From: Dictyostelium discoideum
Lineage: Eukaryota
Assembly: GCA_000004695.1 (NCBI GenBank)
Contig: CM000150.2
Location: forward strand, 1,984,001-2,048,000
DNA: 64,000 nt
Direction of reading: 5' to 3'
Notes under the pieces: model-generated
What the model saw: only the letters and a program-made list of their open reading frames with translations
Databases searched by the model: none
What the model was told of the DNA's origin: nothing
Shown here: positions 5,802 through 39,385 of the stretch, piece by piece
How positions within the stretch are numbered: the stretch's first letter is position 1
Layout of the letters: each line of letters begins with the position of its first letter
Translations under genes and position numbers: made by a program

Positions 5802-6487
5802 CATATAAATAATACATACTGGTAAATTATGAATTCTAGTTTTTAAAACTAATGGATTTAAAACTTGAAATTTAAAATATTTTCTAAATTTTTTTTGTTC
5901 TCCTTCTGGTGTTGTATAATTTACAGCACATACTAAACTATTTATATTTAAAAATTTAAAAAAAAAAAAAACAATTTAATATTGGTGTTATGTGTGGTTT
6001 TATTAATATAATAAATAAAAAAAAATAAAAATATTTTAAAAACTTACATATTAACACCAGATTCTTTAACTTCACGTTGAACAACAAAATCAGAACTAAA
6101 ACCAGGATTAAAAGTTGGTACTGATTGTTGTTCAGAATCTAATAATGGTATTCTTGAACTTGTTGTTTGTAATTCAACCTTTAAGAAAACATTTCTAACT
6201 TGATATGGTGAATGATTATTTAAACTAATGTAACAACAAAACATTTCACCTAAATATATTACACCAGATTGTAATTGTAACATTGAAGTAACACCTAAAC
6301 CTTCCATATTGATTGGATTACCATTATTACCAATTAATTGATTATTATCATTACTACCACTACTATTAACTGATCCCATTGATAATGATGTACTATCAAT
6401 TGATGTTGACATTGTTTCATATGGTAAATCTTGTTTTTCACATAATATTGGATTTATTGTTGGTATATTTGGTTTACTTAACCTCAT
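4769..6487 (-). CDS. TRAPPC13 homolog (trafficking protein particle complex subunit 13). CDS is join(6487..6048, 5937..5820, 5713..4769), 501 codons. A conserved upstream extension (6529..6488) is interrupted by an in-frame TAA.
   Basis: Translation aligns along its length with human TRAPPC13 as recalled from memory. MRLSKPNIPTINPILCEKQDLP matches [40 protein letters not shown] matches NIFLGETFSSYISVHNDS. VCAVNYTTPEGEQKKFRKYFKFQVLNPL matches [53 protein letters not shown] matches [25 protein letters not shown]. The three exons have GTAAGT/GTATGT donors and the phases check out. Upstream of ATG 6487 the same frame reads M-E-N-T-TAA-ENHLLNLKV, matching human QEHLLALKV that precedes MRLTKP. Confidence 0.65.
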
Positions 6488-6722
6488 TACCTTTAAATTT
6501 AATAAATGATTTTCTTAAGTGTTTTCCATTTTTATGTTTTTTTATTTTAATTTATATTTTTTATAAAAAATATATATATAAAAAAAAAAAAAAGATATAT
6601 AAAATGAAAAATTAATTTAGATATTTATCATATGTGTGTATGTGTGTAAATTTTTTTTTTTAATTTGTTGTGTGTTTTTTGAAGAAATTGTAAAAAAAAA
6701 AACTTTCATTTTTTTTTTATTT

Positions 6723-6767
<45 letters not shown>

Positions 6768-6917
6768 CATATCAACTACCATTTTTTTTGAATGATTAAT
6801 TAAGAAAAAAAAAAAAATAAAAATTCGAAAGCAAAAATATCCCACCTGTACATTAAACACAAACAAACGCAATAAATTTAACGATAAACTTAAACATATA
6901 TATATATAAATAAAATA

Positions 6918-7418
6918 ATGTCTGAAGTTGAAAATTCAAATACAGTGGATTTACAATCACAATTATTACCATTAGAATTAATTGAAAAATGTATTGGTTC
7001 AAGAATTTGGATTGCAATGAAAAATGATAAAGAATTTGTTGGTACATTATTAGGTTTTGATGCTTACGTTAATATATTTTTAAAAGATGTTACTGAATAG
7101 TAAGTTTTTTTTTTAAAAAAAAAAAAAAAAATAATAAAAATAGATTCATTCACTCACTCACACACACAAATAATTAACTATTAACCTTTTTTTTTATACC
7201 ATAATTAATCATAGCGAATATACTCCAGAAGGTTTAAAAACAGTTAAATTAGATAATATTCTTTTAAATGGAAATCATGTTTGTTTGGTAAATATAATAA
7301 TAATAATTATTCTAATTAAAATAAATATCATAATTGAATAATAATATTAATTTTACTAATAATTTTATTATAAATTTAGCTTGTTCCAGGTGGTGAAGGT
7401 CCAAAAGTTAAAGCATAA
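6918..7418 (+). CDS. lsm5: U6 snRNA-associated Sm-like protein LSm5. CDS is join(6918..7099, 7215..7287, 7380..7418), 97 aa.
   Basis: The protein [97 protein letters not shown] closely matches LSm5 (LLPLELIDKCIGSRI...GTLLGFDDFVNMVLEDVTE...TPEGRR...LVPGGEGP). Introns are GTAAGT..AG and GTAAAT..AG with consistent phase. Confidence 0.75.
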
Positions 7419-7526
7419 AATTAAAAAAAAAAAAAAGAAAAAAGGAAAAAAAAAAAAAATTAAAAATAAAAAAAAAAAAAATTAAAAAAATATACTCTAT
7501 ATTATTATATTTTATTTTATTTTATT

Positions 7527-9860
7527 TTAATTAATAATTTTTGAAATATAAATACAATATCTTTTAACTCTTTGACCATTATTCCAAAGTTTATTAAAAT
7601 AAGAATAACCATAATCTTCAGATAATTGAATTAAGTAAGTTTCTTTAACTGGTTTATAAATTTTTAGTAATTTTTTTGATTTTGTAAGGATATCTATAAT
7701 TTGATCACTATAATCTTTATCATCAGTTACAATTGTGAGTGTACCATCTTTTTTTAAACATCTATTAATTTCAATGAGGAATAACTCATTGATAAGACGT
7801 TCAGCACCAGACCAAACTGGTGGATTTGGATAATTGATATAAACTTCATTCAAGATATTATCTGGTATGATCTCTTTTAGCGAACCATGAGCATCACCAC
7901 CCACTATATAAAGGTTATCAATTGCTTCAAGTATCATTTTACTCCAAATTTGAAAGATACGATCGTAACGAATTTCCAAAGAGATCCAATCTGCATCTAA
8001 ATCTTGACCGGCTCTTTCAGTCACCCAATGACCGTGACCTGAACAAATCTCCATTTTAAGTGATCTATTACTATTGAAATTGCTACCACCCTTTTTATAA
8101 GAATTGAATAAACCATTGAATGACGATAATGTAGAGTCTGGTGAGGTTGCAACTGTGACAGGTTTACATTGTTGATCGATACTACGATTGACATTATTCT
8201 TAAAAGTATTCTTTGAGAAATAAATACGATTAAAACTTTCCATATTATGATACTTAATTTTTGAACGTGATTCTGTCATTTTTGAAAGATAATTTCTAAC
8301 ACGATCAGATTCTTCATTGATCTCCTGTTTGTTAATTCTTTCAAACAATGAAGAGGAGATCTTATTCTTTTCTGAAAGTTTACCTTTATTTTTATGAGTG
8401 GTTTGAGTTGATCTTGGTGCTTTCGATAGAATGTCATCAGTGATACCCAATGCTTTAACCGAGGATTTAATATCACCAGCTAATAACGATGCCAATGATA
8501 GACGTGAGAAACAAATGGGTGATATTTGACCTTGCATTCTTTCATAAACTTTACCTAGTAAATCCCAAATCTCTTGTACCATTAAATGATGAGAATAGAT
8601 TTTTATCAAATATTCAATGGTGGTTGAATCGGGATAGATCTCATTGGCTTTCATTAATTGTATTAATGATTTAGTGATTTCAATATCACCAGATCTAATA
8701 CAACCACGAAATATGGAATTAAAAGTACGAATATTTGGTTTGGTTTCAATCATACCCTTAATTGTAGCAAATGATTCATCCATATCAATTTCACAAAGTG
8801 CTTTCACATAGATTGTATAAACCACTTCATTGGCATTACCATCTTTAACTGCATCTTGAAAAACTTCTTTCACTTTTTTATACTCTTGACATCTTACACA
8901 TGCATTCAACATAACACCATAGGTAATATGATCTGGTTTTGCTCCAATCTTTTTTAAATAATTATATGCTTTAACCAATTGAACATAATCTTTTGCTTCT
9001 GCACATGATGACATTTGTGATGTAATTTTATTAATAACTGCTCTATTATTTCTAACAATTGATTCTTTTTTTGGTTCTTCTTCTTTTTTTACTTCTTTTT
9101 CTTTTTCTTTTTCTTCTTTTTTATCATTTAATTTTTTATTTTTCTTTTGATTTACTTTTTTTTCTTCATTAATTTCAGTTGTTTTTTCTGTTTCTGTTGT
9201 TTCTGTTGTTGTTGTTGTTGCTGTAGCTGTAGCTATTGTTGGTTCATTTGGCGTTGTTGTGGTTGGTGGTGGTGTTGTTTTTGGTTTCTTTTCTTTTGGT
9301 TTCTTTTCTTTTGGTTTTTCATTTGTTAATTTAATTTTTTTATTTGATTCTTCTTGTGTTTTAGTTGGTGGTGTTGGTGTTGGTATTGGTGTTGGTGTTG
9401 GAATTACTTTTTTAAAATCATAAAAATCAACAATAACTTTTTTATCACCAATGGTTTTACCATTAACTAAATTTTTAATCTATATAAATAAATAAAAATA
9501 AAATAAAATTTGACATTAAATTAGAAATCTTTTTTTTTATTTATATTTTTTTTTACATATGTGCCAACTTACTATTGATAATTGTGATAAATTTTGAGAT
9601 GATAAAAATGAAATAGTTGTATCAGCATCAACTTTACCAATTAAATCTGGTGGTAAAGTAATTGGAATTGTAATATTTATAGAAGGATTTTGAATAATTT
9701 TCTTTAAATTTTCAATAATTTCATTTTTGCTAATTGATTTTGGAATATTTTTAACAATTAATTTTGTAATTGAAACTCCTCCACCGCCTCCTCCTAAAAT
9801 ACCAATTGATGTTGGTGCTGTTGATCCTAATGAATTACCAAATTTTCTTTTTAAATCCAT
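7527..9860 (-). CDS. Pentatricopeptide-repeat protein with a C-terminal TrmB/METTL1-like tRNA (guanine-N7)-methyltransferase domain and a Lys/Glu/Thr/Pro-rich N-terminal region. CDS is join(9860..9573, 9479..7527), about 746 aa.
   Basis: Exon 1 (MDLKRKFG...SQLSI) ends at a GTAAGT donor. An AG acceptor at 9480 continues in frame (IKNLVNGKTIGDKK...) through the 495-aa track ORF. PPR-like repeats (ITYGVMLNACVRCQEYKKVKEVF, TIYVKALCEIDMDESFATIKGM and others) precede a methyltransferase region. That region has EICSGHGHW, LEIRYDR and INYPNPPVWSGAERLINELFLIEINRCLKKDGTLTIVTD, matching METTL1/TrmB motifs (EIGCGxG, LEIR, FPDPHFK...RII...L...GG..YTITD). Confidence 0.6.
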
Positions 9861-10225
9861 ATTTTGAAAATAAAAATAAAAAACGATGGTTATTGTTTTT
9901 GATTAATCGTTTTTAAATGAATTTAAAAATAAAAAAAAAAAAAAAAATGAAAAAACGAAAAATTGGATTTTTATTTTTTTTTTATTTTTTTTATTTTTAA
10001 TTTTTTTATTTTAATTTTACATTTTTCATAATCATTTGTAAGTAATAGTTATTATACTTTTTGATTTTTTACCCCCTTAATGATGACTAATTAATTTTAT
10101 TTAATTTTATTTTTATTTTAAATTTGTATTTACATTTTTTTTTTTTTTTTAATTTAATTTTTAATTTTTTAATTTTTTTTTTTTTTTTAATTTTTTTTTT
10201 AATTTTTGGATTCTTTTTTTCCGCA

Positions 10226-11559: not shown

Positions 11560-11631
11560 GGCTCCTTAGCATAGTGGTATTGCGCTTCCCTAGTAAGGAA
11601 GAGGTCATGAGTTCGATCCTCATAGGAGCCT
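11560..11631 (+). tRNA. tRNA-Thr (anticodon AGU), copy 1.
   Basis: Cloverleaf read by hand. The acceptor GGCTCCT/AGGAGCC is perfect. The anticodon stem CTTCC/GGAAG has loop CTAGTAA (U33, anticodon AGT, A37). The T arm is ATGAG-TTCGATC-CTCAT. A T7 run (pol III terminator) follows. Identical to the copy at 13247. Confidence 0.85.
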
Positions 11632-13246: not shown

Positions 13247-13318
13247 GGCTCCTTAGCATAGTGGTATTGCGCTTCCCTAGTAAGGAAGAGGTCATGAGTT
13301 CGATCCTCATAGGAGCCT
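13247..13318 (+). tRNA. tRNA-Thr (anticodon AGU), copy 2, identical to copy 1.
   Basis: The 72-nt sequence is the same as at 11560-11631, including 10 bp of 5' flank (ttttcaaaaatg). A T7 terminator follows. Confidence 0.85.
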
Positions 13319-25230: not shown

Positions 25231-25689
25231 CTATTCATCTTCTTCAGAATCAGGTAGGTTTTTTGCATCAAAATCACATTGTACACCAGGTGGCAATTCA
25301 CATAATCTAACAGGCTTTCCATCTTTAATACCAACTTTCATTGCTTTTATGACCATTCTAGCATATTCATCTTGGGGAGAGATAGGGGGTGGAGTACTGA
25401 AAAATTCTCGATACATCCAAATATCACATCCTCGAGGATTTTTTCCCAAGTTATATTCAAAAATTCTGCTGTCACTGTAATATTTGTTTATAGTCTCAAT
25501 ATAACGTTCGAATGTTATTCTATAAATCTCCTTCATTTTTTCTTTACATTCCTCTGTGCAGTAACCAGGCTGAATCTTTGGAAACTCATCTTGATCTAGT
25601 AATTCATCAAGGTAAAGAGTGAAATCTTCACTTTTTTTAAGCTTTCTTAAAGAAAATTCATCATGTTGGCAACAATATTTACTTGTCAT
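25231..25689 (-). CDS. Family A protein, intact copy (A1, 152 aa).
   Basis: MTSKYCCQHDEFSLRKLKK...DEFPKIQPGYCTEECKEKMKEIYRITFERYIETINKYY...DGKPVRLCELPPGVQCDFDAKNLPDSEEDE. Paralogs or fragments lie at 18380-18830, 25983-26195 + 30800-31056 and 35079-35411. No recognisable upstream exon. Confidence 0.55.
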   Translation of the reverse strand: MTSKYCCQHDEFSLRKLKKSEDFTLYLDELLDQDEFPKIQPGYCTEECKEKMKEIYRITFERYIETINKYYSDSRIFEYNLGKNPRGCDIWMYREFFSTPPPISPQDEYARMVIKAMKVGIKDGKPVRLCELPPGVQCDFDAKNLPDSEEDE

Positions 25690-25982: not shown

Positions 25983-26195
25983 TCACTCTTCTTCTTTTGA
26001 TTCACTTTCTCCTTCTGAATCGGTTAGACCAGTTGTTTCAATTTCTACATCTACACCCCTTGGCACGTCACATAATCTAACTAGTTTACCATTAAGTATT
26101 CCCGCTTTCATAGTTTTTAAAATACTATCACGGTACTCCGGATCAATCTTCTCCTCTTCTAAACAATCATTGTATGTCTGACAGCCAACTGTCAT
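25983..26195 (-). pseudogene. C-terminal half of a family A gene (A2), separated from its N-terminal half by the E1 insertion.
   Basis: MTVGCQTYNDCLEEEKIDPEYRDSILKTMKAGILNGKLVRLCDVPRGVDVEIETTGLTDSEGESESKEEE starts exactly at the element boundary (ATGAC on the minus strand, equal to the GTCAT direct repeat). It aligns to the C-terminal half of A1. Confidence 0.6.
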
Positions 26196-26398
26196 TGTTG
26201 TAGGGAATTTTCCATAAAATTTCACTACAGTAGCGTAGTGAATTTTATTATTTAATTTCACTACAGTAGCGTAGTGAAAAAAAAAAATCACTGACCTTAA
26301 ATTTTTTTTTTTTTCAAAAAACAAATAAAGTTTATTAAATTGAAATTTTATTTTTTGTTTTAATTATTATTTTATTTATTTTTATTATAATTATTGTT

Positions 26399-26438
<40 letters not shown>

Positions 26439-26706
26439 CAATTTTTTTTTTTTAAATTTTTTTCAATTTTTATTTGTTTATTAAATTGTAATTTTATTTT
26501 TTGTTTTAATTATTATTTTATTTATTATTATTGTTAATTTTTTTTTTTTTTCAATTTTTTTTTTTTTAATTTATTTTTATTAATTTATTTTTATTAACTC
26601 CCTGAGTTGTTCAATTGCTTGATTTACCATATCACTGTAAACACTGCACACAATTGAATTTTTTCTAGCTTTGTTACCTCTGGTGCATTTGATGTTTTTG
26701 CATTTT

Positions 26707-27465
26707 CACAGCGAAGAAAAAACCACCTTTAAATTCGCTTTAAATTAAATTTAAATTTGCTTTAAAGTCCTGAATTAAAGCAATTTTAAAGGTAATTTTA
26801 AAGGTAATTTATAAGGTTACTTTAAAATCACCTTAAAAATTACCTTTAAAATTACCTTTAAAATTACCTTTTTAATGGCTTTAAAAGCGAGGTCCTGAGT
26901 TCGAAGCCGTTATTTAACGGATAAATTTTTTAAAATTTTTTTTTTAATTTTTCAAAAATTACCAAAAGGGATTCGATCCCCCGACCCTCTATCAAAGGGT
27001 AGTCTCATCAACCATTACACCATTTGATTGCTTTGATGAAAAATTTAAAAATGATAGAATATTTTATCCCCATTTTTTTTTTCTAAAATTAGATCTTTTT
27101 TATTAAAAACCTTAAATTTATGTTTAAAGGAAATTTAAATTCACTTTAAATCTACTTTAAATATACTTTAAATCCTATTTAAAATTAATTTAAAATAAAT
27201 TTTAAAGGTATTTTTAAATATCTTAAAAATTATCTTAAAAATTACCTTAAAAATTACCTTTAAAATCACCTTTAAAATCACCTTTAAAATTGCTTAAAAA
27301 TTTATTTTAAAGCAAATTTTAAAGGCATTTTTAAATATCTTAAAAATTACCTTAAAAATTACCTTAAAAATGAATTTTTTAAACGCGGCTTTAAATTCAA
27401 TTTAAATCCAATTTAAATCAACTTTTCTTTAAATTTGCTTTAAAGGTGCATTTTTCTTTGCTGTG
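26707..27465. mobile_element. Nested 759-bp MITE-like element. It has ~27-bp terminal inverted repeats (cacagcgaagaaaaaaccacctttaaa / tttaaaggtgcatttttctttgctgtg), subterminal 12-bp periodic repeats (ttaaaggtaatt / taaaaattacct) and a tRNA-like core.
   Basis: Termini and repeats were read from the sequence. The internal segments ggtcctgagttcgaagcc (about 26893) and 26968-27031 (minus strand) have tRNA-like D and T arm sequences (TGGTGTAATGGT, GGGGGATCGAATCCC) but do not fold into a complete cloverleaf by hand. Confidence 0.45.
26968..27031 (-). other. tRNA-like fragment (Ile-GAU-like anticodon arm ACCCT-TTGATAG-AGGGT). No valid acceptor stem could be found.
   Basis: Hand folding only: the anticodon stem-loop and a T-arm-like GGGGG-ATCGAAT-CCCTT segment are present. 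No matching acceptor stem was found. Confidence 0.25.
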
Positions 27466-27974
27466 TTCCTTTGTATACAAAAAAGTCCAAATATAATTCG
27501 TTTTCTATTACAGTTTTTACACAATGTTGGTGAAATTGTTTTGATTTTAATTCTAATGCTTCTAACATCATATTTGGATTTTTAACGATTAAAGCATCAC
27601 CACTATTTACATATAGTACTTTGGCTGCTTTTTCGAGGAATTTAGTCAAATTTTCCTCTGAATCTAACTATTCTTCATTGCCATATTCAATGGCTAAATT
27701 TCTTAAGAGTTTTATCGAATCTATTAATTCTTCGATCATTCTTTTTTTTTGAAATTTTTTTTTATTTTGTTTTTTCAATTTTTTTTTTTTATTTTGTTTT
27801 TTCAATTTTTTTTAAGTTTTATTTTTTTTTATTTTTTTTTATTTTTTTTAACAAATGTAATTTTTTTTTATTTTTTTCAATTTTTTTTTTTTTTAATTTT
27901 TAATTTTTTTTTTTTTTTTTAATTTTTTGTGTTGATTTGTGTTTTTTTTGTTTTTTTGATTTGGCCACTTGTTT

Positions 27975-28961
27975 TTATTTTCTAATTTCCCCATACCCCC
28001 TTCTATTAATTGCAACCAAATCAAGTTCTAATTTTTGTGTCCTTGTTAACTTTGTTTTTGCAACTTTTTTTGAAGGTATCACATTAACGATTTTTCCTAT
28101 TGATGGTGATTTGGAAGGTGATTTAAATGGTGATTTAAAAGGTGAATTGGAAGGTGATTTAAATGGTGAATTGGAAGGTGAAATGGATGGTGATTTGGAA
28201 GGTGATTTAAATGGTGATTTGGAAGGTGATTTAAATGGTGATTTAAATGGTGAATTGGAAGGTGAAATGGATGGTGATTTGAGAGGTGATTTGGATGGTT
28301 TAGAATGTGATTTTAAAGGAGGTTTATTAACAATTGGTATCTTATGAGGACGGCCTCTGAGACGTTTAACAGTTGTTACTATACCACTACCAGATTGTGG
28401 TATAGTATACGATGGTATTATTTGCACTTGAGGTATTGGTGGTACTATTTCTTTTAAATTCATATCCTTTCTCAAACAATTCATTAAATTTGGCGCTGTT
28501 GGATTATTATTTAAAAATGGGAGTATTTCTTCTTGTTCCATTTCATTATTGAGTTTGTGTTGAAATGGATTATCGTTAATGATAGGTGGAATATTTGATG
28601 GATTGTTAAGAGCATCTTCCAAAACCCTAAATGGATCATTTTGTGTTACCAATTGATGCAAGTTGAAATTGGATAAATCCTTACCAAGATTTTTAATAAA
28701 CTGAACCAGAAATTCAATAACTTTCCCATCATTATTTAAATAAAGACCAGAAGTAAAAGAATCAATATCTTTTTGTATGTTTGGCGATGTTCTAAAAATA
28801 TCAACTGTTGATTGTTTATAAAGAACCAACTTGTTACCTCCTACAAAACCAGAGTATAAACCTTTTTTTTGAAGGCTATTGATTCCATCTTCCAAAAATT
28901 CAAGTTTATAAAGTTGTTTAGTGTCTTCCTGTATTACCTTATGAATTTTACACAAAATCAA
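27975..28961 (-). CDS. AT-hook / SPKK-repeat DNA-binding-like protein (328 aa), inside E1.
   Basis: An RGRP AT-hook (KRLRGRPHKIP) is followed by about 20 repeats of (K/S)SP(S/F)K. These are encoded by a 12-nt periodic DNA repeat (ggtgatttaaat/ggtgaattggaa on the plus strand, 28090-28320). The N-terminal 200 aa are non-repetitive. Confidence 0.4.
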   Translation of the reverse strand: MILCKIHKVIQEDTKQLYKLEFLEDGINSLQKKGLYSGFVGGNKLVLYKQSTVDIFRTSPNIQKDIDSFTSGLYLNNDGKVIEFLVQFIKNLGKDLSNFNLHQLVTQNDPFRVLEDALNNPSNIPPIINDNPFQHKLNNEMEQEEILPFLNNNPTAPNLMNCLRKDMNLKEIVPPIPQVQIIPSYTIPQSGSGIVTTVKRLRGRPHKIPIVNKPPLKSHSKPSKSPLKSPSISPSNSPFKSPFKSPSKSPFKSPSKSPSISPSNSPFKSPSNSPFKSPFKSPSKSPSIGKIVNVIPSKKVAKTKLTRTQKLELDLVAINRRGYGEIRK

Positions 28962-29031
28962 TATTTTCTATTAGAATTAAATATAAAATTTGTTAATTAT
29001 TACTGTTTCATATATTATTAATCTTTATGTT

Positions 29032-30268
29032 TTAATTACTTACATTATTTTTTTTAATTTCTAGAAAGAGTACAGTATCACCAACTTTCAATCCCTTTGG
29101 TGGTTTTGAATTCCATTGATTTTGGTAACTTGTGAGATTTTCAAGAATAATAGCTGTTCTTTCTTCTTTTGAAACATCTGAAACACCAATTGATTGAGAG
29201 TCTTGTTCTGATTGAACATTAATAAACAAAGGAACAATACCAACAGCTTGAGATGGTGTCATTTTAATTGTTCTTGTTTTTGTATTATTGTAATCATACA
29301 AAGCTTGTTTTAATAGTTCAGAAAGAGACCTAGAAGTACCATCAAGAAAACTAAAATTTATTTATAAATGATTAATTAATAAACATATCGATAATTTATA
29401 TTGTTCACAATATCATACTCTTGTTGTTTTAATTTTGAGATCCTCTCCTTGATAGTTCGATTCAATCTTTCTACCATACCTTGAGTTGTTGGTGTACGAG
29501 GAGCTCCATGTGCTGACTTGGAGCCTGGAAAAAGTTTTAGGAATTCTTTTTGGACTTTGTTTTTAAATTCACGTCCATTATCGCAGTGCCATACTTTCAC
29601 AGGTTTGCCAAAGTACGTGAGAGCCAAAAAATTGTATATGGGAACTGTTCTCTTTGTTGTCAAACATCTAAAAAATAAATGATAATTAAAATAAAAAAAG
29701 AAAACTAATAAATTAATAAATAAAAAATAAATACCTTCCAGTAGCAAATTTTGTAAAAGAATCTATGCATAGAATAATGTAAACAACATCGGTGTCGTAC
29801 GGTTGTACAGAGTCATATTGGATAAGATCATCTAGTTTAGTTAGTATCTTTTCATTATCATCATCGTATGTAACTTTTTCTTTATGTTCACCTTTAATTG
29901 ATGTTAAATCATAAACCAATCTTGAGTATTCCTCGGTATCTACAATTGGAGCAAAATCCTTTGTTATACCTATTAATTTATTTAAATTATTAAAAGAGTT
30001 TTAATATAAAAGTTACAAAACATCATATAAAAATGATTGATACCAAACCTTTTATTCTATTTCGTTGGCAAATGTCACACGTATCTACTGCATCAGATAC
30101 AAAAGAATACAATCCCATATTATAATATTTAGTCTTGTAGTTCCCATAGGTTGCATCTCTTCCTATATGACCTTTATGCATTTCTTCCCAGAGTGATACC
30201 ATTCTATAATCATTAATTACTTCTAAACACACTTCTTTTGATATATTTCTATCTCCGCCACAATTCAT
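29032..30268 (-). mobile_element. Degenerate Ty3/gypsy-type LTR-retrotransposon integrase remnant (Skipper/DGLT-like), fragmented across three or four ORFs.
   Basis: An HHCC zinc-binding motif is present (HKGHIGRDATYGNYK...CDICQRNRIKG). An integrase core is present (KVWHCDNGREFKN...SAHGAPRTPTTQGMVERLNRTIKERI). A C-terminal SH3-like KVGDTVLFLEIKK is present. Stops and frameshifts lie between the pieces. Confidence 0.6.
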
Positions 30269-30487
30269 GACTTTTTTTTCAATTCTAAATAATTTTTCTT
30301 TTCTGTTTCTGTTTTTTATTGGTCAGAATTTAAAAAATGATTGTGTTATTGTAAGGAAAAATATTTACTCATCATGTAAAAATTTATAATTTTTATGTTT
30401 AGTATTTTCAAAATTATTATCTTCAATAAATTTTAAATAATTTATAATTTCATTTATTTTATCTTGTTTCATTTTGGGAAAATGAAA

Positions 30488-30522
<35 letters not shown>

Positions 30523-30799
30523 TGTTGGGGAAAAAAAAAAAAAGTTTTGGCGCAAAAAAAAAAAAAAAAATAAAATAAAAAAAAAAAAAAATAAAATAAA
30601 AAAAAAAAAAAATAAAAAAACTTATATAGAACTAATAATCAAATAAAAGATAATAATTTAATAAACTTTATTTGTTTTTTGAAAAAAAAAAAATTTAGGG
30701 TCAGTGATTTTTTTTTTTCACTACGCTACTGTAGTGAAATTAAATAATAAAATTCACTACGCTACTGTAGTGAAATTTTATTGAAAATTCCCTACAACA

Positions 30800-31056
30800 G
30801 TCATTATTGGTGGGTCTGGGAAACTTTTGAATATTTTACAATCATCATAGTAATTATTAACTGCCTTGAGATATCCTTCGAAAGTTATCCTATAAATTTC
30901 TTTCATTTTTTTTTTACATTCTTTTGTACAGAGTCTATTTATCTCAGGGAATCTATCCTGGTCAAATAATTTATCATCGTATAAAAAGGGGCCAAGTTTT
31001 TTAAGGTTTTCTATTGAAAAGCGGTCATGTCCGCATCCACCTACTTTTCTCAACAT
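30800..31056 (-). pseudogene. N-terminal half of family A gene A2. The reading frame runs into the E1 terminal repeat (...PDPPIM then TVVGNFQ, stop).
   Basis: MLRKVGGCGHDRFSIENLKKLGPFLYDDKLFDQDRFPEINRLCTKECKKKMKEIYRITFEGYLKAVNNYYDDCKIFKSFPDPPIM aligns to the A1 N-terminus. It ends at the GTCAT/ATGAC direct repeat. Confidence 0.6.
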
Positions 31057-31480: not shown

Positions 31481-31696
31481 TGTTGTAGGGAATTTTTTTT
31501 GAAATTTCGCTTTCTAAACGGCAGTGAATTTTTACACTAAAATACACTGTTTATGCATGGTGTAAAAATTCACTAAATTTTTTTTTTTTTATAATTAAAT
31601 TAAAAAACAATTTATTTAATCAGAAAAATAAAAAACCAATTTTATTCAGTTATTTGCTTGTTATTTATTTTTTTATAACAAAAAAATTTAGTTTGC

Positions 31697-31754
<58 letters not shown>

Positions 31755-31837
31755 CAATTATTTTTTTCAATTTTTTTTTTTATCGATTGTTTCATTTTTG
31801 GGGAATAAAATAAAATTGTTCGATAAAAAAAAAATTG

Positions 31838-31900
<63 letters not shown>

Positions 31901-32102
31901 GGTTTATATTTTAATTATGGTATTCATTATTGTTTATATAATTATTTTTAGTATTTATATTATTTATAATTATAAACTCGAGTTAATAGAATTATTATTA
32001 TTATTATTATTATTTAAATGTGGGTCAACTATAATTAGTGTCTTAGTTCACTTATTTAATATTAACTTATTTTTGTGTCTTCGTTACATAAAAAAAAAAA
32101 TG

Positions 32103-32134
<32 letters not shown>

Positions 32135-33156
32135 AAAAAAAAAATAAAAAAAAAAAGAAAAATAAAAAAAAAAAGAAAAATAAAAAATAAAAAAAAAAAT
32201 AAAAAAAATAAAAAAAAAATAAAAAAAAAAGAGGGTACCCCCCCCTAAAAAAAATAATAATTTTAATAATAATAATAATAATAATAAAAATGAAAATTAA
32301 TATTTAAATAAAAAAAAGAGGGTACCCCCCTAAAAAATGTTGGAATTTAATTAAATTTATTTTTTATTTTTTTTATTTTTTAATTTTATTTTTTTTATTT
32401 TTTAATTTAAAAAATGTTGATATAAAACAAAAAAATTTTTTCAAAAAAAACATTTCAAATTATTTTTAACAAATTATATTATTATACTTTAATGTATGTG
32501 TACAATTTTAAAAATTTAAAATTTGTTCTATTTTTATCAATCATATCATGTATATTTATTAATTAAATCTCATATATTCTTATTCCCAGCAAATGACATC
32601 AGGTGGAATCGTACAACCAGGCCAAAATCTCTCACAACGTCCAATAAACGGCCAATATGGCTGGGGACCAGCAGCAGGAAGTGCCGCAAATCCACGTGGC
32701 GATCTCCGTGGTTACACTTACAATATTAGATAGTTTCGCTGTCTATTTCTGAATATTCAGAAATCTTTGTTTAATGCCAAAAATAGTAGATATCTATTAT
32801 ATTTTCTCATTTTATAAATCTGATAAGATCTGTCTTAAATAAAAAAAATCAAATTTTTTTATAAATTAAAAAAAATCATTTCCGCAAATCCGCAAAAAAT
32901 AGCGGGAATTAAATTATTTATTGTTTTTTAAATTGTTTTTTTTGCGTGATATGAAATGAACAGCAAATGAACAACGTGTGAGTTGTATTAGCTGATGGTA
33001 ATATTTATTTATTTTTGTTTAATTAAAAAATTTTTTATAAAATAAAAAAAAAAAAAAATTTTAGTGAATTTTTACACTACGCATAAACAGTGTATTTTAG
33101 TGTAAAAATTCACTGCCGTTTAGAAAGCGAAATTTCAAAAAAAATTCCCTACAACA
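31481..33156. mobile_element. E2: 1.7-kb element with ~97-bp terminal inverted repeats sharing the terminal 16 bp (tgttgtagggaatttt) with E1. Flanked by a 6-bp direct repeat CACCTA. The interior is non-coding.
   Basis: 31481-31577 is the reverse complement of 33061-33156 with one 3-nt difference. Each arm contains a 15-bp-stem hairpin (agtgaatttttacac...gtgtaaaaattcact). CACCTA lies at 31475-31480 and 33157-33162. The interior has poly(A/T) tracts and two GAGGGTACCCCCC boxes (32231, 32318). Confidence 0.55.
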
Positions 33157-39311: not shown

Positions 39312-39385
39312 GGGACTATAGTTTAGTTGGATATAACGACCGGCTACGAACCGGTAGGTCTCAGGTTCGACCCCTGATGGTCTCG
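39312..39385 (+). tRNA. tRNA-Arg (anticodon ACG).
   Basis: The acceptor GGGACTA/TGGTCTC has two G-U pairs. The anticodon stem ACCGG/CCGGT has loop CTACGAA (U33, anticodon ACG, A37). The variable loop is AGGTC. The T arm is TCAGG-TTCGACC-CCTGA. The discriminator is G. Confidence 0.75.

Follow-up and report, generated by a model that had tools for sequence, protein, structure and literature searches.

Two halves of a small gene lie 4.6 kb apart, on the minus strand, in a stretch of Dictyostelium discoideum DNA of 64,000 nucleotides (contig CM000150.2 of assembly GCA_000004695.1, positions 1,984,001 to 2,048,000; all coordinates below refer to this stretch, hereafter the window). What is the segment that separates them, and how did it come to be there? 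A first-pass annotation described this segment, here called E1, as a DNA transposon with terminal inverted repeats (TIRs), non-autonomous or composite, without a transposase and with termini matching no known element. E1 is almost certainly a copy of Tdd-4, a member of the Ginger2/TDD group, which landed within the coding sequence of a small gene specific to Dictyostelium and subsequently acquired a nested 759-bp MITE.

The split host gene and the ends of the element

The host gene belongs to a family that we call A. Its two halves, the target-site duplication (TSD) and the ends of E1 are disposed as follows:

30805–31056, minus strand: amino-terminal half of the family A host gene (from alignment; AX4 model DDB_G0268958 incorporates its last 37 codons)
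25983–26195, minus strand: carboxy-terminal half of the host gene (AX4 model DDB_G0268956, 70 amino acids, with its start ATG inside the TSD)
26191–26195: left copy of the TSD, GTCAT (from the sequence; single copy in the L007 empty site)
30800–30804: right copy of the TSD, GTCAT (from the sequence)
26196–26438, plus strand: TIR on the downstream side of the transposase gene, starting TGTTGTAGGGAATTTTCC, near-perfect to about 26327 and then degenerate
30557–30799, minus strand: TIR on the upstream side of the transposase gene, ending ...GAAAATTCCCTACAACA
26221–26242 and 26257–26278: palindromes of the left TIR (exact-copy count and hairpin folding)
30717–30738 and 30753–30774: palindromes of the right TIR (exact-copy count)

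E1 spans residues 26196–30799, with edges TGTTGTAGGG...CCCTACAACA, and the direct repeat GTCAT borders it on both sides, as first described. Deletion of 26196–30804 in silico yields one open reading frame of 154 amino acids, slightly shorter than the approximately 157 originally given. Its collinearity with the paralog at 25231–25689 holds, with 72 identities in 162 aligned columns. At locus L007 of D. cf. discoideum, exactly the reconstructed, uninterrupted sequence is present, with one copy of ATGAC, reading …CCAATAATGACAGTTGGC… across the junction; protein P0044 is 100% identical to the restored host frame across the junction. E1 is also absent from the syntenic locus L006. A second D. discoideum assembly has the same insertion at the orthologous position (L004), there without the nested MITE. 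The insertion of E1 is thus documented both by its TSD and by empty-site sequences. The host protein matches no family in Pfam. The locus corresponds to gene models on AX4 chromosome 1, both of them artefacts of the transposon insertion: DDB_G0268958 is a chimera of host gene and Tdd-4, while DDB_G0268956 is the orphaned carboxy-terminal half of the host gene.

The inverted termini, first measured as 104 bp, are real and extend further. The segment from 26196 to around 26327 aligns with the reverse complement of approximately 30668–30799 with two mismatches and a single one-base indel over about 130 nucleotides; weaker complementarity reaches 254 nucleotides at 80% (repeat pair I1), or around 320 nucleotides at about 82% in a BLAST self-comparison. 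The outermost bases, TGTTG...CAACA, fit the pattern TGTNR...CA. The 16-mer TGTTGTAGGGAATTTT occurs four times in the window, against 0.26 occurrences expected, with two copies flanking E1 and two flanking a second element at 31481–33156. The two tandem hairpins noticed at each terminus correspond to a 22-nucleotide palindrome, TTCACTACAGTAGCGTAGTGAA, which is found exactly four times in the window (none expected), twice in each TIR, and folds into a hairpin with a z-score of -6.1. These paired subterminal palindromes are candidate transposase-binding sites.

The E1 terminus recurs at eight further loci. Five independent insertions, E1 included, are flanked by five different 5-bp TSDs: GTCAT, TCATC, CATAT, AACAA and GCTAA. 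The copy at locus L002 differs from E1 by no substitutions, with gaps in homopolymer length only; other copies measure 3821 and 3831 bp, and a shorter one, at L010, 3435 bp. With these further copies and the exact empty site at hand, the insertion stands on the grounds by which the first-pass annotation proposed to judge it. Identity at every aligned base between copies at different loci argues for very recent activity.

The transposase gene

The interior of E1 had been described as holding a gypsy integrase relic, an AT-hook reading frame and a nested MITE. The first two are parts of a single gene:

27975–30472, minus strand: Tdd-4 transposase gene (gene model; 715 codons plus stop, six exons)
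30472–30369, 30308–30049, 29969–29735, 29667–29419, 29350–29044 and 28967–27975, minus strand: exons of the transposase gene
28067–28335, minus strand: 12-bp tandem repeat in the final exon of the transposase gene, coding for the SPXX repeats (repeat family D3, period 12; motif scan)

Read without splicing, E1 could be taken for a TIR element lacking its own transposase, with unrelated debris in its interior and mobilised in trans by another element: the integrase-like reading frames in the raw sequence are short and in different frames, the Pfam rve matches fall below threshold, and a nested MITE is present and disrupts the second reading frame, ORF2. Yet the pieces are joined by five AT-rich introns of 60–79 nucleotides, all GT-AG (the enumeration was restricted to this type), into a frame of 715 codons without stops, of which the AT-hook reading frame is the last exon. 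The NCBI annotation likewise has five GT-AG introns. The product is 100% identical over 715 amino acids to protein P0015 (KAM9941581.1 and others), which has been annotated independently at four further loci in D. discoideum, and its core agrees almost completely with that of TDD-4 (see below). The intact transposase frame makes a non-autonomous element or MITE very improbable, and this reading was rejected; the integrase pieces are not relics. Before integrase-like "relics" in Dictyostelium DNA are called dead, splicing should be tried, although beyond such annotation hygiene the locus matters little.

In the amino-terminal part of the E1 transposase, an H2C2 zinc finger is formed by residues 78–115; the Pfam family Integrase_H2C2 matches with 32.1 bits, above its cut-off of 25.5. 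The families rve and rve_3 match under their curated cut-offs, and the assignment of D191, D229 and E266 as candidate DDE residues therefore depends on where the motifs lie and on alignments in the literature; the spacing of 38 residues between the two aspartates is short. The carboxy-terminal part contains an AT-hook (RGRPHK, at residue 589) and 16 SPXX repeats (residues 612–675). A motif search of the transposase revealed neither GPY/F (GP[YF]) nor YPYY motifs. In the open reading frame list and the Pfam matches of E1, integrase domains were the only ones found, with no reverse transcriptase, RNase H or gag, and no protein-primed polymerase or capsid reading frames.

Similarity to Tdd-4 and to other integrase-type elements

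When E1 is compared with Tdd-4, as the first-pass annotation had suggested, the family becomes clear. Measured against the reference transposase cores that Bao et al. 2010 supply in Additional file 1 (PMC2836005), the E1 core is identical to that of TDD4 (XP_629668) at 255 of 256 positions and to that of TDD5 at 102 of 185 (55%). Published TDD-4 is 3,839 bp long, with a TIR of 260 bp, a 5-bp TSD and TGTNR termini, and has H2C2 and DDE but lacks GPY/F and YPYY (PMC2836005). E1 measures 3843 bp without the nested element and one TT, its TIR is about 254 nucleotides, its TSD is also 5 bp, and it shares the TGTNR and TG...CA termini, the presence of H2C2 and DDE and the absence of the other two motifs. 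Because transposase core, length without the MITE, TSD and termini agree, we assign E1 to Tdd-4 and the Ginger2/TDD group, whose transposase is a DDE enzyme of the integrase type (Bao et al. 2010, PMC2836005). On this sequence comparison, E1 is an ordinary copy of a long-known D. discoideum DNA transposon. It differs from Tdd-4 in carrying the 759-bp MITE in ORF2. Tdd-4 as described by Wells in 1999 is said to have six introns, including an AT-AA intron, and 15 SPXX units, whereas E1 has five GT-AG introns and 16 SPXX units. A deleted form of 3.4 kb reportedly exists as well, to which the copy of 3435 bp at L010 may be compared.

Tdd-5 (AF298206) has the same architecture as E1, an identical 16-bp terminal sequence, and in common with it the subterminal motifs AAATTTC and AGTGAATTTT and the possession of a subterminal palindrome; its TSD is also 5 bp (PMC2836005). 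However, its transposase is 44% identical to that of E1 overall and 55% in the core, and the interior of the TIR differs. The protein cluster with 44% identity (P0004 and P0036) is identical to TDD5 at 176–177 of 179 positions and includes DDB_G0290955, which is Tdd-5 (PMC3386910); for P0003 (DDB_G0292352), an exact look-up gave no locus. In the window, Tdd-5-type ends belong to the neighbouring element at 31481–33156 (E2), not to E1. For E2, no empty site could be read in the syntenic locus L006, where the region is too diverged.

Ginger1 and the metazoan Ginger2 elements (for instance Ginger2-1_NV), classed as cut-and-paste DNA transposons, resemble E1 in their Gypsy-integrase-like transposase, TIRs and TGTNR termini (PMC2836005). 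Their TSDs are of 4 bp, against 5 bp in E1, and Ginger1 additionally possesses GPY/F and YPYY motifs as well as C-terminal protease domains, all of them absent from E1. The integrases of Gypsy LTR retrotransposons and of Polinton/Maverick elements belong to the same H2C2/DDE superfamily and share the TG...CA end chemistry, and E1 could on account of its H2C2 and rve domains and its termini be a fragment of one of these. Its anatomy makes this exceedingly improbable, and both possibilities were rejected: the terminal repeats of E1 are inverted, not direct; without the MITE it is a TIR element of 3.84 kb that has integrase domains alone, with no LTRs and none of the replication, gag or capsid genes of those classes; its TSD has 5 bp; and the 3.8-kb unit is present in many complete copies.

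ORF2, the nested element and the state of this copy

Between the transposase gene and the end of Tdd-4 downstream of it lies ORF2, which in E1 is interrupted by the nested element:

27466–27739, minus strand: 5' part of ORF2 (ATG at 27739; takes in the duplicated TT)
26707–27465, plus strand: nested non-coding TIR element (MITE) of 759 bp (from empty site, copies and repeats)
26580–26706, minus strand: 3' part of ORF2 (identical ORF2 in L001–L004)

The termini of the nested element read CACAGCGAAG...CTTTGCTGTG (CACAG...CTGTG), with a TIR of 51 nucleotides, and a 2-bp TSD, TT, lies on either side (26705–26706 and 27466–27467). Its interior consists of arrays of 12-bp repeats that form long hairpins and of a degenerate tRNA-like stretch. 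No open reading frame is present between 26707 and 27465, an Rfam search of the element gave nothing significant, and ARAGORN found a tRNA-like fold only once its threshold was lowered to 80%. The nested MITE proposed in the first-pass annotation is borne out by its precise absence from the orthologous Tdd-4 copy L004, where the empty site reads …GCATTTTCCTTTG…. Seven copies of the nested element were found, all with 2-bp TSDs of variable sequence (TT, TA, GA or GT); six of them sit within Tdd-4, in three of the nine copies that were examined. It is thus short, non-coding and multicopy, with TIRs, a TSD and a precise empty site, as expected of a MITE, and, being polymorphic between the genome of the window and another D. 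discoideum assembly, it must have moved recently. The nested element is the only part of the locus that might be new. An uncatalogued or mis-described MITE family that prefers Tdd-4 as its insertion target is nevertheless improbable. More probably, it is thug or DDT-S, short DNA elements previously catalogued in D. discoideum (no sequence accompanies thug-S in the papers that name it), and its clustering in Tdd-4 more probably reflects the known habit of DDT and Tdd elements of inserting into each other (PMC2665215).

ORF2 has a length of 399 bp in intact copies, contains a conserved in-frame TAG and is identical base for base in all other copies examined (L001–L004); in annotations of other copies it appears as a gene of 110–114 amino acids. 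It matches no Pfam family. Since the in-frame TAG is conserved and homology is not detectable, ORF2 may lack any function as a gene. This bears on whether E1 is a recognisable but dead Tdd-4, inactivated by the MITE in ORF2 or the 3' region and persisting as a fixed gene disruption. In favour of this, the MITE splits an otherwise invariant ORF2, and the same insertion is retained at the orthologous site of the second D. discoideum assembly, and hence was not lost there. Both TIRs and the transposase frame are nevertheless intact and identical to those of other copies, and even with a defective ORF2, should that frame matter, mobilisation in trans would be possible from the many other copies (dictyBase has 19 Tdd-4 ORFs; PMC3386910). 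We consider a dead E1 rather unlikely, though a good deal less so than the alternatives discussed above. Since its transposase frame and its two ends are all intact, E1 as a Tdd-4 copy could still supply transposase and be mobilised, as judged from its sequence.

By analogy with its family and with integrase chemistry, the movement of E1 may be pictured as follows. The element encodes its own transposase of the retroviral integrase type, with an amino-terminal H2C2 domain, a DDE core and a DNA-binding tail containing the AT-hook and SPXX repeats. This enzyme would recognise the inverted termini, probably via the conserved tip of 16 bp together with the subterminal pairs of palindromes, cleave at the TG...CA ends and join the 3' ends to the target DNA with a 5-bp stagger, the repair of which would give the GTCAT duplication. 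As Tdd-4 copies are identical across loci and the MITE differs between strains, both might be used to mark DNA transposition that is still going on in D. discoideum.

Transposase gene and family of E1

The minus strand of E1, the 4.6-kb terminal inverted repeat (TIR) element at 26196-30799, contains short integrase-like open reading frames and a 328-residue "AT-hook" frame, located in different reading frames. The first-pass annotation saw no transposase in them and recognised no known family; both readings turned out to be wrong. The integrase-like frames are joined to the AT-hook frame by five GT-AG introns, AT-rich and 60-79 nt long, which gives an intact coding sequence of 715 codons with no internal stop:

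30472-30369, minus strand: first exon of the Tdd-4 transposase
30308-30049, minus strand: second exon
29969-29735, minus strand: third exon
29667-29419, minus strand: fourth exon
29350-29044, minus strand: fifth exon
28967-27975, minus strand: last exon

At full length, the encoded product shows 100% identity to P0015, a protein retrieved in the homology searches that NCBI annotated independently at four further loci in the D. discoideum assembly GCA_054883475.1. Its Pfam match to Integrase_H2C2 is above the gathering score, and matches to the rve and rve_3 cores are just under theirs. The HHCC residues are located at 78-115, candidate catalytic residues D191, D229 and E266 lie in the expected motif contexts, and an AT-hook (RGRPHK, residue 589) is followed by 16 tandem SPXX units (residues 612-675), the coding sequence of which is the 12-bp tandem repeat at 28067-28335 (repeat family D3). 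Reverse transcriptase, RNase H and gag are all absent from E1, and its protein contains neither GPY/F nor YPYY motifs.

TDD-4 and TDD-5 of D. discoideum were described by Bao, Kapitonov and Jurka in 2010 (PMC2836005) as cut-and-paste DNA transposons with a Gypsy-integrase-like transposase, having 5-bp target-site duplications (TSDs), TGTNR termini, an H2C2 finger and a DDE core, without GPY/F or YPYY; their sizes are 3,839 bp (TIR 260) and 3,783 bp (TIR 297), respectively. When compared with the reference cores from Additional file 1 of that paper, the E1 protein is identical to TDD4 (XP_629668) at 255 of 256 positions, whereas only 102 of 185 positions are identical to TDD5 (AF298206). Without the nested element and one TSD copy, E1 measures 3,843 bp. 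Because of the TDD4 core match, this length, the TGTTG terminus, the 5-bp TSD and the lack of GPY/F and YPYY, E1 is, as judged from its sequence, a copy of Tdd-4, differing from Tdd-5 in the transposase core. A second cluster from the homology searches (P0004/P0036) is 44% identical to the E1 protein and matches the TDD5 core at 176-177 of 179 positions; it includes DDB_G0290955, named as a Tdd-5 copy (PMC3386910).

Ends of E1 and the interrupted host gene

Alignment of the left end of E1 (from 26196) with the reverse complement of its right end (to 30799) extends over about 130 nt, interrupted by two mismatches and a one-base indel. Weaker complementarity reaches 254 nt at 80% (inverted-repeat pair I1), and in a BLAST self-comparison the repeat is detectable to about 320 nt at 82%. 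In the window there are four occurrences of the 16-nt tip TGTTGTAGGGAATTTT (0.26 expected) and exactly four of the 22-nt palindrome TTCACTACAGTAGCGTAGTGAA, two in each terminus (0 expected); the palindrome forms a hairpin when folded. The TSD, GTCAT, is located at 26191-26195 on the left and 30800-30804 on the right. Both ends and the transposase frame are intact. From the family and integrase chemistry, the transposase would bind the termini, with the tip, the motifs common to Tdd-4-type and Tdd-5-type ends and the paired palindromes as candidate sites; it would cleave at TG...CA and integrate with a 5-bp stagger.

The first-pass annotation placed this segment correctly and proposed that it is an insertion with a TSD that disrupts a gene, which the following comparisons bear out. 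Deletion of 26196-30804 restores a minus-strand frame of 154 residues, collinear with the 152-residue paralog at 25231-25689 (162 aligned columns, 72 of them identical). A D. cf. discoideum locus (L007) carries exactly this sequence without the interruption, ...CCAATAATGACAGTTGGC..., and its protein, P0044, shows 100% identity over the junction; the syntenic locus L006 likewise lacks E1. At the orthologous locus of GCA_054883475.1 (L004) the insertion is present, with an identical TSD.

The paralog corresponds exactly to DDB_G0268734 on chromosome 1 of the reference strain AX4, which has two further models here:

25983-26195: DDB_G0268956, 70 residues, C-terminal half of the split host gene, starting at an ATG inside the TSD
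27975-30906: DDB_G0268958 (UniProt Q55EV9), 805 residues, chimera in which the final 37 codons of the N-terminal host half are joined to the Tdd-4 5' UTR and the whole Tdd-4 transposase

Both are artefacts of the insertion. E1, a member of an already known family, is therefore already part of the reference genome. The host family A proteins (25231-25689; 25983-26195 plus 30805-31056) have about 150-160 residues and an acidic C-terminal tail. They contain no Pfam domain, and homologs among 5.8 billion proteins are confined to D. discoideum, D. cf. discoideum and D. firmibasis.

Other copies and neighbouring features

Nine loci with Tdd-4-type transposase genes were fetched. Copies complete to the same termini are flanked by different TSDs: TCATC (L001), CATAT (L002), AACAA (L009) and GCTAA (L010). 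Between the L002 copy and E1 there are no substitutions and only homopolymer-length gaps, which points to very recent amplification. The L010 copy (5920-9354; 3,435 bp, TSD intact) has an internal deletion of about 390 bp towards the 5' end of the transposase gene. It may belong to the 3.4-kb deleted class of Tdd-4 that Wells reportedly described in 1999.

A second TIR element of 1,676 bp, at 31481-33156, has the tip TGTTGTAGGGAATTTT in common with E1 and Tdd-5-type ends. Its first 274 nt or so match, at 96%, the terminus directly before the Tdd-5 transposase gene (P0036) in L002. As no transposase is present within it, it has the appearance of a Tdd-5 derivative that is internally deleted or non-autonomous. 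The repeat flanking it, CACCTA, can be read as 6 bp or as 5 bp with one further, ambiguous base. L003 carries a comparable short element (9551-10076). The window also contains two tRNA-Thr (AGT) genes and one tRNA-Arg (ACG) gene (11560-11631, 13247-13318 and 39312-39385); tRNA genes are typical landing pads of Dictyostelium TRE and DGLT-A retroelements.

Nested element and second reading frame

The nested MITE recognised in the first pass proved genuine. It is a 759-bp non-coding element at 26707-27465 with termini CACAGCGAAG...CTTTGCTGTG (CACAG...CTGTG), a TIR of 51 nt at 75% complementarity, no open reading frame and, in its interior, 12-bp repeat arrays folding into long hairpins. The orthologous Tdd-4 in L004 reads ...GCATTTTCCTTTG... 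at this point, a precise empty site with a single TT; because this Tdd-4 copy lacks it in another D. discoideum assembly, the MITE has been mobile recently. Further copies are located at:

L001: 3108-3867, 5299-6056, 7108-7867, 8978-9736
L003: 62-751, 1727-2498
L009: 4243-5000, 5819-6566

All seven full copies have 2-bp duplications (TT four times; TA, GA and GT once each). Six insertions lie within Tdd-4, in three of nine copies, a sample biased by every locus having been fetched via Tdd-4. This clustering agrees with a published observation that DDT/Tdd elements tend to gather inside each other (PMC2665215). Within the MITE, a degenerate tRNA-like stretch (26959-27029, minus strand) carries a B-box-like motif, GGGGATCGAATCCC, and a second, GAGTTCGAAGCC, lies on the plus strand at about 26897-26908; ARAGORN picks up the tRNA-like stretch only with its threshold lowered to 80%, and Rfam gives no match for it.

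The MITE splits ORF2, the small second Tdd-4 frame downstream of the transposase (26580-26706 plus 27466-27739), so E1 may fall short of full autonomy. This frame has no Pfam match and is 399 bp long and base-identical in other copies (L001 8021-8419; L002 and L003 7731-8129; L004 7737-8135). Every copy keeps a TAG in frame behind codon 23, which annotators span by a short intron.
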